From positions 21,826,001 to 21,890,000 of the forward strand of contig CM097885.1 in assembly GCA_044892525.1 (NCBI GenBank): a stretch of DNA of 64,000 nt. The letters run 5' to 3'. Below are positions 14,736-38,700 of the stretch, one piece after another. The position numbers and the translations under genes were made by a program. The notes beneath the pieces are model-generated. The model worked only from the letters and a program-made list of their open reading frames with translations, was not told the DNA's origin and made no database searches. This DNA comes from Schmidtea polychroa (taxonomy: Eukaryota). Position 1 is the first letter of the stretch; each line of letters starts with the position of its first letter.

Positions 14736-17700
14736 TTAAACAATTTTCTCTAGCACCTTTGAGCGCATGTGACTGTTTTTAAATAGAGCTTTGATCATAT
14801 TCCTGACCTCGACTGCCGAAATGTGTTCTTGCATCGAATTGGCATCATTAACCCATCGCTCTTCAATTGCCAACAGTCCATTCTCCAATAGAAACAATAC
14901 CTCCTGCAGTTTGCCCCACTTGGAGCAATTTTCCAAAAAAACCAAACTATGTGATTTAATATTATCCTCACAACTGCCGGTTATATCTCTCATATCTTTT
15001 TCTTCCTGTAATTTAGTGTTTATTCCAATTAAATGGCCTTTGAATTCTTTCAATAACACTATTAATTGTTCACTATCCGTTTGGATGATATCAGACAGGT
15101 TTAATATGTTCCCAAGGATTCGATCAGCCGCCCAATCAAGAATAGCGCCTATGAATGGAGATGGATGAAAGACAAACAATTACAAGTTGAGCCTTTACCA
15201 TAAACGTGATTCAATATCGTGTCAGGAAACGCACTATATATTTTAATCAACGACGACAAATGATAGCAGCATTTCTTTATTATTTTATGCACCTTTTCTT
15301 TGTTGTCACTGCCAACTCCCTTGAAATATTAAACGGTAACTACGAAATTTTAGCAACAATAAATAATCTACTCGAAATGATGACAGTTCATCGAAAAATT
15401 CGGTTATTATGTCCTTTTGTTTAGAGATTTCCGTGGTCACACATTCAGTAGCGGCTTCGCGAAATTGATAAACTAATGGTAACAAACTGAATGTAGATAT
15501 CTTAATCGTTGCATTATCAGATTCAGAAAGTTGAGAAGAGTTTTGTGATTTGAAATAATCTATTAGGGGCTTCAATTCAGTTGACCAGTAAAGACAGTAA
15601 TGAGCCAAATACATGCAATTGTTGTAGTGTAGAACTGGAATGAGTAGAGGAATAAAATTTAAGAAAGAGAAAGAATATTTAAAAACTGTGCAGTGGTTCA
15701 ATTTTTTTTGATAATCCATATCTTATAAATTAACAAATTATAATCGCAACTAAGAAAAAATAGTCTCAAATAAAATGCATATATATATATATATATATAT
15801 ATATATATATATATATATATATATATATATATATATATATATATATATATATATATATATATATATATATATATATATATATATATGTGTATTGCCAAAA
15901 CGTTTCCAGTCTATCTTTGTTAGAAATGAACATTTTTTAACATTTTTGTCATCATTTTATAGATAATTTTTTGACTGGCAGATAATATATAATTGATTTT
16001 TACCTTTTATTTTAGGTGAACACAAAATTATGTCAATGCAAGTGAAAGTTGTGGATAAAGTGGAGTATTGAAGTACCATTCGATGTTGACTTCTTGGTCA
16101 AGGTAGCCAGGAGATTGTTGAAATTTTGACACGAGCTTATCGAGATTAATGTCCGTCCAAACTCTACAATTAAAATCTGGATTGAAGAATTAAAGAGGAG
16201 GTCAAAGTGTGAGTGATGATAATGAAATATAAGTTTGTCCCATTTCCTTGAAAAATGACAATAAAGAAAAATTTTAATAAATATGCTTGAGGATCATCGA
16301 GTAACGACAAGACAGCTGAAAGATTTTCTACGAGTCTTCAAAATTACAGGACCTTATTTTCCATAAGGTCATATTACGATTTGTCCCAAGATTCCTTACT
16401 CTAGAAATATGTGCAAATCGACAGAAAGCATGTTCTCATAACCGTTTCATTTATCAGACGCATGAAACTTGATTTTTACAGAATCATTATCAGTAGATGG
16501 ATTGGTCACCGCTAGATCAGGTCACCGCTAGATCACCTACCCCCCCCCCACCCCCCCCCCCCCCCCGGCAGGAAAAATTTTTTTAAGATTTTTTTTTTCA
16601 AGGTCAAATTTTTAACAAAGACAATGACTCATCAAGGTCATTGAAACAAAGAACTTTTTTTTTTTTGTTTTAATTATCGTGATCTAGCGGTGACCTACCT
16701 TTTGACTTCCCAGAACTTTTTGAGTTTTCAAAATTATTTAAATATTTATACATCATTTTGAAGGCCAGACGAAAATCTATCTTTTAAGCCATAGAAATAA
16801 TTTTTATCATCAGTGGTACAAAAGTTATTAATTTTTTAGTCAGACACTAATTTGGTTAAAATTATTATTATTTTTCAAAAATATTATTAAGTGATCTAGC
16901 GGTGACCTACCTTTTGACTTCCCAGAACTTTTTCAATTTTCAAAATTATTTAAATATTTATACATCATTTTGAAGGCCAGACGAAAATCTATCTTTTAAG
17001 CCATAGAAATAATTTTTATCATTAGTGGTACAAAAGTTATTAATTTTTTAGTCAGACACTAATTTGGTTAAAATTATTATTATTTTTCAAAATATTATTA
17101 TTTTCAAGGTCATATTATTATTAAGTGATCTAGCGGTGACCTACCTTTTGACTTCCCAGAACTTTTTCAATTTTCAAAATTATTTAAATATTTATACATC
17201 ATTTTGAAGGCCAGACGAAAATCTATCTTTTGAGCCATTAAAATAATTTTTATCATCAGTGGTACAAAAGTTATTAATTTTTTAGTCAGACACTAATTTG
17301 GTTAAAATTATTATTATTTTTCAAAAATATTATTAAGTGATCTAGCGGTGACCTACCTTTTGACTTCCCAGAACTTTTTCAATTTTCAAAATTATTTAAA
17401 TATTTATACATCATTTTGAAGGCCAGACGAAAATCTATCTTTTAAGCCATAGAAATAATTTTTATCATTAGTGGTACAAAAGTTATTAATTTTTTAGTCA
17501 GACACTAATTTGGTTAAAATTATTATTATTTTTCAAAATATTATTATTTTCAAGGTCATATTATTATTAAGTGATCTAGCGGTGACCTACCTTTTGACTT
17601 CCCAGAACTTTTTCAATTTTCAAAATTATTTAAATATTTATACATCATTTTGAAGGCCAGTCGAAAATCTATCTTTTGAGCCATTAAAATAATTTTTATC

Positions 17701-35700: not shown

Positions 35701-38700
35701 GCTTAAAAGATAGATTTTCGTCTGGCCTTCAAAATGATGTATAAATATTTAAATAATTTTGAAAATTGAAAAAGTTCTGGGAAGTCAAAAGGTAGGTCAC
35801 CGCTAGATCACTTAATAATAATATGACCTTGAAAATAATAATATTTTGAAAAATAATAATAATTTTAACCAAATTAGTGTCTGACTAAAAAATTAATAAC
35901 TTTTGTACCACTAATGATAAAAATTATTTCTATGGCTTAAAAGATAGATTTTCGTCTGGCCTTCAAAATGATGTATAAATATTTAAATAATTTTGAAAAT
36001 TGAAAAAGTTCTGGGAAGTCAAAAGGTAGGTCACCGCTAGATCACTTAATAATATTTTTGAAAAATAATAATAATTTTAACCAAATTAGTGTCTGACTAA
36101 AAAATTAATAACTTTTGTACCACTGATGATAAAAATTATTTCTATGGCTTAAAAGATAGATTTTCGTCTGGCCTTCAAAATGATGTATAAATATTTAAAT
36201 AATTTTGAAAACTCAAAAAGTTCTGGGAAGTCAAAAGGTAGGTCACCGCTAGATCACGATAATTAAAACAAAAAAAAAAAGTTCTTTGTTTCAATGACCT
36301 TGATGAGTCATTGTCTTTGTTAAAAATTTGACCTTGAAAAAAAAAATCTTAAAAAAATTTTTCCTGCCGGGGGGGGGGGGGTGGGGGGGGGGTAGGTGAT
36401 CTAGCGGTGACCTGATCTAGCGGTGACCAATCCATCTACTATTATCACTGTTCTTTATGCACCTGAATCGAGACGCGAGTCGTTGAAATGGCGGAGACCT
36501 GAAGAAGATAACTTTTGGAAAGTCCATTCTGGAATCACAATCACGTGAACTCATGTTGACCGTATTTTGGAATTATAATGAAGTGATTCTAACCAACTTT
36601 GTTGAAAAGGGGAAAGCAATCAATGTGGAATACTATGGCAAGCTCATTAAGAAAGTTTGCAGACTTGTTGGAAAACCTAATGGACTTCCTCATTGGTTTC
36701 AGCACGAAAATGCACCAGGTTACATTTGGCTCAGTCTGCTTATTGTCTATATAGTTAATTGAAAAGAGTCTCAGAAGACAACATTTTATGAATGTAAATA
36801 GTTTACAAGAGGTCACCGAGAACATTTTTGAAGGGTTTCCGTTCTCCTTTTACCATGGTGTATTTGATACCCTATCTGTATGCTGGGAGAAGTGTTGTTT
36901 GGATTCCAATTACAATAGGTTTGAGAAATAGAGATGTTGTAGTAATACAAGACGTTGTTTTCTGTTATTTAAATAGAAATTATTTAGCGCACCAAGTAAT
37001 AGATAGATAGATAGATAGATAGATAGATAGATAGATAGATAGATAGATAGATAGATAGATAGATAGATAGATAGATAGATAGATAGATAGATAGATAGAT
37101 AGATAGATAGATACCACAGTCAGTTGCTGTACAGATCAATTTTCAAACATTTTCAGATTTATGTTATTTTTTGTAAGTTTTATATTCTTATATTATAAAT
37201 AAATTAAAAATACAGCAAATTCTTCATGAGTGTCACAAAAAATGAGTTCTTACAAAAACAGACATATCTTATTATCAGAAAACAATTGGGAACTTTGAAT
37301 GTAAAGGTTTGGAGATTTGCTTGTACATAATTTTGTAAAGATTTAGAGATAACTCATTTTCACATATTTTCAAGATAGAAAATAGAATATCTGTGAAATA
37401 TCTTCTATATAACCATGAGTCACGATACAGTCGATACAGCAAATAAATGTTAGATCGTAATTTTCCAATCTCTTTGCAGGCATAATTAAAAACAAAATTT
37501 CATCTAGTTTTCTAATAATTATCGCTGTTTTCATAGCAAATTTTCACTTTTGAACAAATAATTCACATTTAACAATTTAATAGAATAGTTATGAAAGGTA
37601 TAAAAGAATTAGTTTACAATAATATTCCCATATTCATCATTTTTAATAAGTGGAAAGCCCCCTCTCCTCCTTCTTAGGTTACGCTTTTAATGGATCCCCA
37701 CATACAAAATGTGACACTTATCGAGAATTTACTGTACTATAAGATAGTTTTGATTAGGTCAATGAAAATTTAATTTATTTTTTGAAAATATATCTAAATA
37801 GGGATTTTAATAATAATGATTATATTATAGTTTTTTATTTTTCTCTTTTAGAAATGGTTTTTTAAAAATTAATGAGAAAAATTTGTGTTCATTGGCTGAA
37901 TCATAAATAAATTAATATTAAAATCAATAATTAATTAATCAATTTGAAATTGAAATTTTCTGTCGGGTTGGTTAACAAGCTTTTAAATTTAGACTCAGAA
38001 TATCTGCAGATCAACGAAAATGATAACATGATTAGAAATGTAAAACTTATGAAGACAGAGGATATGTATAAGGTTTCAAGAATCGAGAAGTAGAAACATG
38101 ACAATATCTTCTGAAGTACTAATAACTAAAGCCCTTGAAATTGCTGAGAAATTAGACGTATCAGACTAAATAACATAAAATCTAAAAGAATAAATGGAGA
38201 AGCAAATTTAGTTGAGGTTAATATTTTGGAGAATTTTAAAAATAAATTAAAAGACAAATTGTCTCAATATAAGGATGAAAATGTATATAATTGTGATGAA
38301 ACGGGTCTGATGTATACAGTCTTGGAAAAAAACTTATGCATTTTCGAATTCAGATAGAGCTAATGACAAATTTTCTAAAGAAAGAATAATAATATTGTTT
38401 GCAGTAAGTAAAGCTGGGGGGAAAATCTAAACCACTTGTAATTGGGAAATCAAAAAATCCTCGATGTTTTAAAGGAAAAAATACACTCAGACTACCAGTA
38501 TTATATGATGCAAATAATAAAAGCTAGATGAATTCTGCAATATTTTATGATTGGTTAAAAATAAATTCGCAAATAAAACAAGAGAACAGAAAGATATTAT
38601 TAATATTGGATAACGCCCCTGCACATCCCAAGGATTACAAGTTTTCAAATGTCGAACTGCTCTTTTCCCCTTAAAATAGTACCTCAAAGAAGGTATTTGA

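Follow-up and report, generated by a model that had tools for sequence, protein, structure and literature searches.

A 64,000-nucleotide stretch of Schmidtea polychroa DNA (contig CM097885.1, positions 21,826,001 to 21,890,000; referred to below as the window) carries a 19,949 bp Polinton/Maverick insertion at positions 16492-36440. We conclude with high confidence that this is a full-length, very young and high-copy element of the adintovirus-like kind in an AT-rich animal genome, with a mode of gene expression in which a special gene-start box would be read by a short, element-encoded paralog of the TATA-binding protein (TBP). The element was inserted into an older repeat by a DDE integrase-type event with a 6-bp duplication, and both the short TBP paralog and a 136-aa protein recur in a clade of related elements from metagenome and other assemblies. 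Polintons/Mavericks (polintoviruses) were reportedly defined in Kapitonov & Jurka 2006, Pritham et al. 2007 and Krupovic et al. 2014. The features of this type that we looked for were all found: as in a 15-20-kb Polinton/Maverick, there are a 6-bp target-site duplication (TSD), long terminal inverted repeats (TIRs) starting with AG, and genes for pPolB, an rve integrase, an A32/FtsK ATPase, an adenain and a double-jelly-roll major capsid protein (MCP), together with a candidate minor capsid (penton) gene.

Insertion site and termini

Both ends of the element begin with AGTAGATGG in inverted orientation (the longer shared start is AGTAGATGGATTGG), and each is adjoined by one copy of ATTATC (Table 1). 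The flanks at 15950-16491 and 36441-36900 belong to one older interspersed repeat family. Each flank gave at least 40 genomic matches of 65-87% identity, and at several places the two flanks were found adjacent to each other. All four paralogs of the repeat that were fetched are continuous across the site, with a single (A)TTATC followed by right-flank sequence, which shows that the segment was inserted with duplication of a 6-bp target; the four places are paralogous empty sites. The perfect TSD and the element boundaries of the original prediction proved to be exact.

The same junctions bear on the idea that the element is an assembly artefact, or contaminating free viral DNA misjoined to host sequence. 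Repeats of such size can in principle be mis-assembled, and no support for this was found here. Both junctions lie in one older host repeat, and in its paralogs the sequence runs on across the site with the target present once. About 100 further pairs of termini are present in chromosome-size contigs, and the element has host genes, namely ZW10 and tubulin exons, at distances of 1-8 kb. An artefact of either kind is extremely improbable.

The two TIRs have the same build. Comparison of the arms gave matches at all 183 aligned positions of the terminal 187 nt and at 415 of 419 positions of the inner unique part, and TIR blocks of 427 and 339 nt were 100% and 99% complementary. The arms differ in length at the poly-C tract, at the (TTA)n run and by one unit of the 212/446-bp array (6.9 versus 7.9 units). 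The near-identical TIRs predicted originally therefore stand as regards sequence, the arms being 99-100% alike outside the length-variable repeats, but not as regards length. The 5'-AG termini of these long repeats are a Polinton/Maverick feature.

A GC-rich 15-mer, GATCTAGCGGTGACC, occurs in 19 exact copies, where none is expected, within 16504-18011 and 34691-36428. Two copies are located at each tip, and seven or eight lie in each tandem array in the orientation opposite to that of the tip copies. They are candidate binding sites for integrase or replication proteins. Runs of (ATT/TTA/AAT)n are found in both TIRs (18253-18419 and 34300-34448, differing in length between the arms) and at two delicate places in genes, namely an insert in the integrase core (29001-29070) and an in-frame Asn run of the polymerase (22563-22624). 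The lengths of these trinucleotide runs probably also vary between copies of the element.

Copies in the genome

Copies were searched for in a 781-Mb assembly with four chromosome-size contigs. The first pass of the MCP search yielded 5104 candidates, which is not a copy number; all 98 places that were scored hold a full-length MCP with at least 99% protein identity, and 96 of them contain no stop. With the 3.5-kb accessory arm as the query, 40 places were scored, and their DNA identities fell into classes of 100%, 98-99%, 94% and 91-92%. Several of the 31 copies that were aligned show no difference over about 3.5 kb, and 28 of the 31 have no stop in any of six accessory frames when counted on aligned codons, the exceptions being L103, L109 and L110. 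The exact 46-nt terminus occurs 210 times (102 forward and 108 reverse), compared with 0 for the control, and 43 terminus pairs spaced 4.9-27.8 kb were found among the 100 places listed. There are accordingly about 100 elements with the exact tip, deleted and palindromic derivatives included, amid a larger halo of older subfamilies.

These results show that the family is very young and was amplified very recently. The original prediction of a young, potentially active endogenous virus, for which it had proposed genome-wide mapping of copies and their divergence as a check, is well supported by the near-identical MCP copies, the 210 termini and the empty sites.

In two derivatives (G000:C1:98840292-98856409 and G000:C3:43701968-43714623), two 3.5-kb accessory arms face each other about 4.4-5.7 kb apart. 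The first of these lies between exact termini 16.1 kb apart, and therefore most core genes must be missing from it. These palindromic derivatives look like a foldback product of strand-switching in protein-primed replication.

Core genes

Homologs of the MCP were found in metagenome and run assemblies (170, the best at 95% identity and many at 40-75%); IMG/VR yielded no MCP relative, whether the single protein or an alignment was used. The frames of the window were compared by tblastn with 75 related loci from JGI metagenome records, most of which are short fragments. The module conserved in these loci comprises the ATPase, a basic protein, the integrase, the penton candidate, a 122-aa protein, the MCP and the protease.

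The MCP sequence had no match in Pfam, and searches of PDB sequences found nothing for the MCP, for the part of the polymerase that was searched, or for the 136-aa protein. An AlphaFold2 model of the MCP built on an alignment of 21 homologs (pLDDT 84.9, pTM 0.86) gave 298 Foldseek matches in the PDB at E<=0.001, headed by PBCV-1 Vp54 and the iridovirus MCP (E ~1e-16), with the MCPs of Sputnik and mavirus lower in the list, which identifies the protein as a double jelly-roll. In BFVD the model matched, at the level of the fold, entries including a MELD virus, adomavirus LO7 and an Adintovirus. The best BFVD match was an uncharacterised Cotesia bracovirus protein (24% identity, E 3e-26); a Maverick is known to have entered the bracovirus locus of a Cotesia wasp.

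The polymerase region 19097-21199, when scanned alone, matched PF03175 with E 2.3e-28 (99.8 bits, cut-off 25.8), a match that the Pfam scan of the entire open reading frame (ORF) missed. The N-terminal part contains a C2H2-like Cys/His stretch, a low-complexity region and the in-frame (AAT)n Asn run, and the only matches in PHROGs were endonuclease-VII-like ones on the Cys/His segment. Three relatives (L010, L020 and L030) have polymerases 45-51% identical over about 1100 aa. In all three, the polymerase lies on the strand opposite to the capsid module, and in the window element the two are co-oriented; the clade is rearranged by inversions.

The integrase frame of the window scores 25.7-26.5 bits for rve, below the cut-off of 32.6, and the match ends at about position 72 of the profile. 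The low score arises because a 75-nt in-frame GT..AG segment of (ATT)n (29071-28997) splits the rve core between "TDLG" and "KEF". Scores exceeding the cut-off (44.1 and 57.1 bits) were obtained for two orthologs without the insert; the orthologs are 59-63% identical, and an rve (DDE) integrase is thus present as in Polintons/Mavericks. The segment may be either spliced out or translated as 25 extra residues. The integrase was matched in 20 of the 75 related loci. A candidate frame of 76 codons (29290-29520, minus strand) overlaps its 5' region and starts directly at a ATAAACAA box with Met-Gly-Ala-Asn-Pro-Ser, which is myristoylation-like.

The adenain-type protease exceeds the cut-off of its family (Table 1), and the His, Asp and Cys positions are seen in its translation. 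In the predicted gene model, a first exon of 5 nt (25758-25754, ATGGA) is followed by an intron that opens with GTAAGT and measures either 34 or 37 nt, and the main exon starts at 25719 or 25716 and ends at 25374. The ATG is preceded at a distance of 32 nt by a TATAAAT box, which overlaps the stop codon of the MCP gene. The micro-exon and mini-intron recur in five relatives (L012, L013, L010, L016 and L019) at about 43-59% protein identity, and the protease intron has therefore been inherited. In addition, L012 and L013 have the gene-start box 32 nt before the ATG of the micro-exon, which supports the gene model.

The packaging ATPase is 72-76% identical to its relatives. Ratios of non-synonymous to synonymous polymorphism (pN/pS) between subfamilies, which rest on small counts and cover the ATPase, basic, TBP-like, 99-aa, 136-aa, Bcl-2-like and glycoprotein genes, gave 0.02 for the ATPase. 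Homologs of the putative penton, 28-36% identical, were found in 42 of the 75 related loci, where the gene is invariably flanked by the integrase on one side and the small protein/MCP on the other. All six core genes had been called intact in the original prediction. Five are confirmed (pPolB, integrase, ATPase, adenain and MCP), and the penton candidate is an open frame placed by synteny. No nonsense lesion was seen. Five core genes are uninterrupted frames, and the protease and the integrase would need short GT..AG introns.

Two small proteins of the module may also belong to the virion. The 122-aa protein has an amphipathic N-terminal half and a basic C-terminal tail, had no match in Pfam, PHROG or the PDB, and is a candidate virion-core or membrane-active protein. 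The basic 175-aa protein, with a conserved C-terminal half, a hydrophobic Gly-rich tail and a pN/pS of 0.27 against a subfamily of 96% identity, is a candidate core protein.

The TBP-like gene and the gene-start box

The product of the TBP-like gene matches TBPs as a single sequence with E 9e-10. A profile of 28 members matched only TBPs in the PDB (35 of 35 matches, best E 7e-20), and it is the C-terminal repeat alone that aligns. When the N-terminal and C-terminal halves were compared by hhalign, a strand pair with the pattern F-x-SGK...G-x-K was matched over 13 columns (probability 85%, E 6e-6). The protein is thus predicted to be one canonical TBP repeat preceded by a truncated N-terminal half-repeat. 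As in cellular and archaeal TBPs (PF00352), the C-terminal 80 residues align to the TBP repeat, and the likeness includes the Phe of E-P-E-x-F-P and that of F-x-S-G-K, which we take to be the DNA-kinking residues. In contrast to those TBPs, the protein has only about 145 residues, with the first repeat reduced to its last strand pair and no N-terminal tail, and it is encoded by a mobile element and belongs to a separate family of 108 clusters.

All the clusters of this family carry PF00352, and 101 of them are 125-194 aa long; several are on contigs equal in length to MCP-bearing ones. The gene was matched in nine of the related loci (seven at 44-58% identity and two weakly), and its pN/pS between subfamilies is 0.25-0.33. 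Its position shifts among the relatives, being beside the ATPase in some and downstream of the protease in L042. Because the gene is conserved across the clade and stands beside conserved TATA-type boxes, it is more plausibly a lineage gene of the clade that serves the element's own TATA-type promoters than one for host manipulation.

The sequence (T)ATAAACAA is common to the upstream regions of the virion-module genes, where it is strand-specific and lies mostly 31-41 nt before the start codons. The boxes of the cluster at 27043-30725 precede the genes for the ATPase, the basic protein, the integrase, the small protein, the MCP and the penton, and five of the eight occurrences of TATAAACAA in the window fall within 3.7 kb, all on the coding strand. 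A sixth (32543-32551, plus strand) contains a ATAAACAA whose first nucleotide lies 31 nt ahead of the acidic repeat gene's ATG. In the element and 13 relatives (130,208 nt), the 8-mer ATAAACAA occurs 82 times on the MCP strand and 10 times on the other. Of these 92 occurrences, 43 have the ATG of an ORF of 60 aa or more no further than 60 nt downstream, compared with 7.6% of random positions, and T precedes the box in 60. The box-to-ATG spacing peaks at 31-37 and 41 nt and is gene-specific and conserved, being 41 nt for the MCP, 19 nt for the penton and about 100 nt for the 122-aa gene. The box is kept in 12 of 13 related contigs, the exception being L071, the most distant relative (28% MCP identity). 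It occurs in differing reading frames of the upstream genes and is therefore a nucleotide-level signal. In the window, TATAAA(A/T)-type boxes are found 32-41 nt before the ATGs of the TBP, 136-aa, Bcl-2-like, glycoprotein and protease genes.

The conservation of this module is relevant to another explanation, namely that the family is a purely intragenomic transposon that spreads by copy-and-paste in the germ line or in stem cells with no virion stage, its capsid module being undecayed only through youth. The copy numbers in one genome are indeed very high, many internally deleted and palindromic derivatives share the same termini (4.9-27.8 kb among the 43 listed pairs), and copies so nearly identical are uninformative on selection. 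The capsid-module genes, however, are 28-76% identical across the 75 loci and keep the same order and the same box, which indicates long-term selection on the module, and the ATPase pN/pS of 0.02 between subfamilies points in the same direction. A further point, as yet unconfirmed, comes from sequencing runs labelled with a second organism, which contain 12-18% of the sampled 31-mers of window positions 24200-34150; a second species may carry near-identical stretches. We therefore regard a family with no virion stage as unlikely.

Accessory genes

At least nine accessory ORFs were counted beyond the six core genes, in agreement with the at least seven predicted originally. They stay open and are under purifying selection between subfamilies, the acidic repeat gene being without clear constraint.

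The 103-aa protein gave Bcl-2 (PF00452) as the top Pfam match for three variants (E 0.0037, 0.0008 and 0.033), at 15-20 bits and hence below the cut-off of 31.4. A profile of the protein had Bcl2-A1/Bfl-1 as its top six matches in the PDB (E 0.03), on the BH1 region. Its structure model has six helices and a low confidence (pLDDT 64.8); Foldseek of this model returned nothing at E<=0.001, with Bcl-xL at rank 12 (E 2.7), and VIA-align returned five Bcl-2-family entries among 50, at Z 5.1-5.8, which is inside the noise range of helical bundles. A word-index search for relatives found only the protein itself, and an exhaustive search found one at 62% identity. The pN/pS of the gene is 0.14-0.25. 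The evidence for a Bcl-2-like protein is weak but consistent, and we consider this assignment the likelier one.

The 166-aa predicted glycoprotein begins with a hydrophobic leader, carries five N-x-S/T sequons and a coiled-coil stretch in its middle, and is hydrophobic at the extreme C-terminus; its pN/pS is 0.12-0.32. Only sub-threshold, coiled-coil-type Pfam matches were obtained, and no homolog was found in the 75 related loci or the Atlas. It is far smaller than known viral fusogens, too small to resemble them. In the acidic SIM-motif gene, a motif scan found one strict hydrophobic quartet followed by acidic residues, which is SUMO-interaction-like; among the copies of this gene, one lacks 6 nt of the acidic run without loss of frame, and another carries 8 additional nt in a putative intron. 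The LxCxE motif is present in no gene frame and occurs only in a non-gene frame.

The 136-aa protein was invariant in the three divergent subfamily copies translated (92-96% DNA identity), with 1-5 synonymous and no non-synonymous changes (pN/pS 0.00), and it had no match to a family, the PDB or the Atlas. The 99-aa gene shows a synonymous divergence of 0.40-0.93, compared with about 0.05 in the neighbouring intergenic DNA, and a pN/pS of 0.11-0.29, which suggests cassette exchange or diversifying pressure. By eye, one subfamily allele is roughly half identical in protein. No homolog in the 75 related loci and no family were found for the 99-aa protein, and the PDB search gave only a segment of DIM-5 at E 0.05. 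The acidic repeat gene has a predicted first exon of 22 nt, indels among copies in units of 12 nt, and 0-2 synonymous versus 5-14 non-synonymous changes.

In the original prediction, the TBP-like, Bcl-2-like, SIM and glycoprotein genes formed a host-manipulation set, which in its strongest form would be a newly assembled toolkit that places the element apart from ordinary Polintons. Several observations agree with this view. The accessory genes are open in 28 of 31 copies and under purifying selection, Bcl-2 is the top, albeit weak, match by three routes, and the SIM-like motif is accompanied by a glycoprotein with a leader, sequons and a hydrophobic tail. In addition, the SIM, 99-aa, acidic repeat, Bcl-2-like and glycoprotein genes have no match in the 75 related loci and so would be lineage-specific; most of these loci are short fragments, however, so that absence from them is weak evidence. 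The TBP-like gene is a true PF00352 member, as the prediction held, but it is clade-wide (108 clusters, and seven related loci at 44-58% identity) rather than special to this element, and its place beside conserved TATA-type boxes points to self-transcription. The Bcl-2 match is below the curated threshold, with a model pLDDT of 64.8 and nothing at E<=0.001 in Foldseek, and the SIM protein and the glycoprotein are recognised at the level of motifs; no LxCxE is found in the gene frames, and a glycoprotein of 166 aa is far below known viral fusogens in size. Furthermore, adintoviruses are already known to carry Bcl2, IAP and Oncoid genes, according to the sections of PMC8502044 considered here. 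A new toolkit of this kind is thus possible but doubtful.

Genomic neighbourhood

The C-terminal exons of ZW10 lie about 770 nt to the left of the insertion, and tubulin exons are also nearby. The remainder of ZW10 was sought to the right of the insertion, and no exons were found there. Other frames in the neighbourhood encode a pogo/Tc5-type DDE transposase, a GIY-YIG-domain protein and a remnant of a hAT dimerisation domain. Searches for Rfam families and tRNAs within the element found none.

Table 1. Features of the element and its surroundings (positions in the window).
Feature	Position	Strand	Remarks
Left TSD ATTATC	16486-16491	.	Direct reading; single copy at paralogous empty sites
Left TIR	16492-18609	+	~2.1 kb; terminus AGTAGATGG, two terminal 15-16-nt GC-rich repeats, poly-C, 212/446-bp tandem array of 6.9 units, (TTA)n
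pPolB	18968-23116	-	1382 codons stop-to-stop, first ATG 23074; PF03175
Spacer between polymerase and upstream acidic gene	23240-24153	.	Non-coding; microsatellite and 21-, 110- and 125-bp tandem repeats
Acidic SIM-motif gene	24253-24724	-	Predicted exons 24724-24637, 24588-24511, 24467-24253; ~126 codons
Adenain-type cysteine protease	25374-25758	-	PF00770, 27.3 bits (cut-off 21.3)
Major capsid protein (MCP)	25786-27009	-	407 aa; double jelly-roll by AlphaFold2 and Foldseek
Conserved 122-aa small protein	27006-27374	-	Adjoins MCP in 56 of the 75 loci
Putative minor capsid (penton) protein	27367-28437	-	356-codon frame, ATG 28422; position and conservation
rve integrase with C-terminal chromodomain	28368-29459	-	rve and chromo; rve sub-threshold in the window
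Basic 175-aa protein	29521-30048	-	Homologs in 12 related loci between ATPase and integrase
A32/FtsK-type genome-packaging ATPase	30067-30693	-	PF04665 (Pox_A32), 30.5 bits (cut-off 22.8)
Five TATAAACAA boxes	30717-30725, 30073-30081, 29590-29598, 27467-27475, 27043-27051	-	Within 27043-30725, coding strand
ATAAACAA box	28434-28441	-	Part of the virion-module box cluster
Short TBP paralog	30792-31229	+	145 aa; PF00352 E 7e-14, 51.8 bits (cut-off 22.9)
99-aa Cys-containing protein, hypervariable cassette	31421-31720	+	Open in the copies compared
Conserved 136-aa protein	32038-32448	+	Homologs adjoin TBP gene in L010 and L020
Acidic repeat protein, EPIE-type 12-nt repeats	32575-32960	+	Predicted exon 1 32575-32596, intron 32597-32637 (41 nt), exon 2 32638-32960
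All-helical 103-aa protein, possibly Bcl-2-like	33241-33552	-	Sub-threshold Pfam; PDB profile
166-aa predicted secreted/anchored glycoprotein	33658-34158	+	Last ~49 nt in right TIR
Right TIR	34110-36440	-	~2.3 kb; same build as left, 7.9 tandem units
Right TSD ATTATC	36441-36446	.	Direct reading
Neighbourhood features (ZW10, tubulin, transposase-type frames)	14736-15722, 8513-11745, 5996-7303, 39929-40255	-	
Neighbourhood feature, as above	42278-43282	+	

Discussion

The arrangement of genes and boxes suggests how the element may be expressed. Every gene would be transcribed by RNA polymerase II as a small unit of its own, with a very short leader and a TATA-type box that mostly stands 31-41 nt ahead of the ATG. 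The special box (T)ATAAACAA would be used by the virion/integration module, and TATAAA(A/T)-type boxes by the genes for the TBP paralog and the protease and by the accessory genes of the right arm. The short TBP of the element is the best candidate for the factor that would read the special box and switch the virion module on, and the short host-type introns (in the protease, the integrase and two accessory genes) would belong to normal expression. The TIR ends would be the starting points of protein-primed replication, integration would be performed by the rve-chromo integrase and maturation by the adenain, since these roles are established for these enzyme families. For the right-arm genes (the possibly Bcl-2-like protein, the glycoprotein, the hypervariable Cys protein and the acidic proteins), the most likely role would be an effect on the host cell while the element replicates.

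We also put forward, tentatively and as a possibility we would not bet on, that the pair forms a private transcription switch. The cut-down TBP would recognise the clade-specific (T)ATAAACAA and so uncouple capsid production from the host's general TATA recognition, and the element would stay silent in thousands of copies until TBP is made.

Several points weigh against our interpretation as a whole. The number of TATAAACAA in the window is near chance (8 versus 4.1 expected, and 8 of 100 shuffles reach 8); the signal of the box lies in its strand, clustering, spacing and conservation, which were noticed post hoc. The boxes of the integrase (65-139 nt from the ATG) and of the 122-aa gene (about 100 nt) fall outside 31-41 nt, and boxes at 31-41 nt imply 5' leaders of a few nucleotides. 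Boxes containing ATAAA might alternatively act as poly(A)-type signals for the gene upstream, which is less likely because at the MCP box the cleavage would precede the stop codon of that gene. The link between TBP and box is a correlation, and L071 has no box and only a weak TBP-like match. The promoters, the start sites and the introns, including all splice models, are predictions from sequence; if the 75-nt segment is not spliced, the integrase would bear 25 extra residues in its catalytic core. The penton is a putative assignment that derives solely from synteny, and the near-identity of the copies reflects recent amplification without proving present activity.

Compared with the Polintons/Mavericks described so far, the element differs in its unusually structured TIRs (212/446-bp arrays with 19 GC-rich 15-mers), in the short introns predicted in several genes, in a pPolB that is co-oriented with the capsid module rather than on the opposite strand as in three relatives, and in the conserved short TBP gene with the TATAAACAA gene-start box. 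Also among the closest is the group described in Starrett et al. 2021 (PMC8502044), the sections of which considered here report that adintoviruses carry Bcl2 and IAP homologs and acidic or motif-rich "Oncoid" genes upstream of PolB, and use "TBP" as a gene label in the legend of Figure 5 for MELD viruses with an adintovirus-like PolB. Within those sections, the likeness to adintoviruses and animal MELD viruses extends to a genome of the Polinton type that is associated with animals and has an integrase and virion genes like those of adenoviruses, and to the accessory kinds Bcl2/IAP and acidic "Oncoid" (upstream of PolB). The element differs in that no PLA2X, gasdermin-X or cupiennin homolog was detected by Pfam and no LxCxE motif was found in its gene frames. 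The part of the PMC8502044 supplement that was searched has no flatworm or TBP entry. The original prediction had allowed that a described family might have the same accessory set; given the Bcl2, IAP, "Oncoid" and "TBP" labels in these sections, the category of accessory genes is not new.

The promoters of virophages and Polinton-like viruses, in the excerpts of that literature considered here, also show a short conserved motif at a fixed short distance before many genes of a small dsDNA element. Theirs are late-promoter motifs borrowed from giant viruses, whereas the motif here is TATA-like, and the element has no giant-virus partner and encodes a TBP; the polymerase to be expected is the host nuclear RNA polymerase II. 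The part of a 2026 preprint considered here (10.64898/2025.12.11.693146) reports DNA/Maverick repeat expansions in planarian genomes and gives no gene-level description. Among open-access papers and preprints, none was found that describes, for animal Polintons, either a family of TBP genes or a promoter box. What is new is therefore the pairing of TBP and box as a feature of the clade.

With about 100 copies with exact termini, open capsid genes, selection on the accessory genes and clear empty sites, this family is a good natural system in which to ask by observation whether Polintons/Mavericks of animals still behave as viruses. In related contigs, the TATAAACAA box is of use for the annotation of starts, micro-exons and small genes, and together with the short TBP it provides a concrete, cheap and testable hypothesis for the timing of the virion genes.

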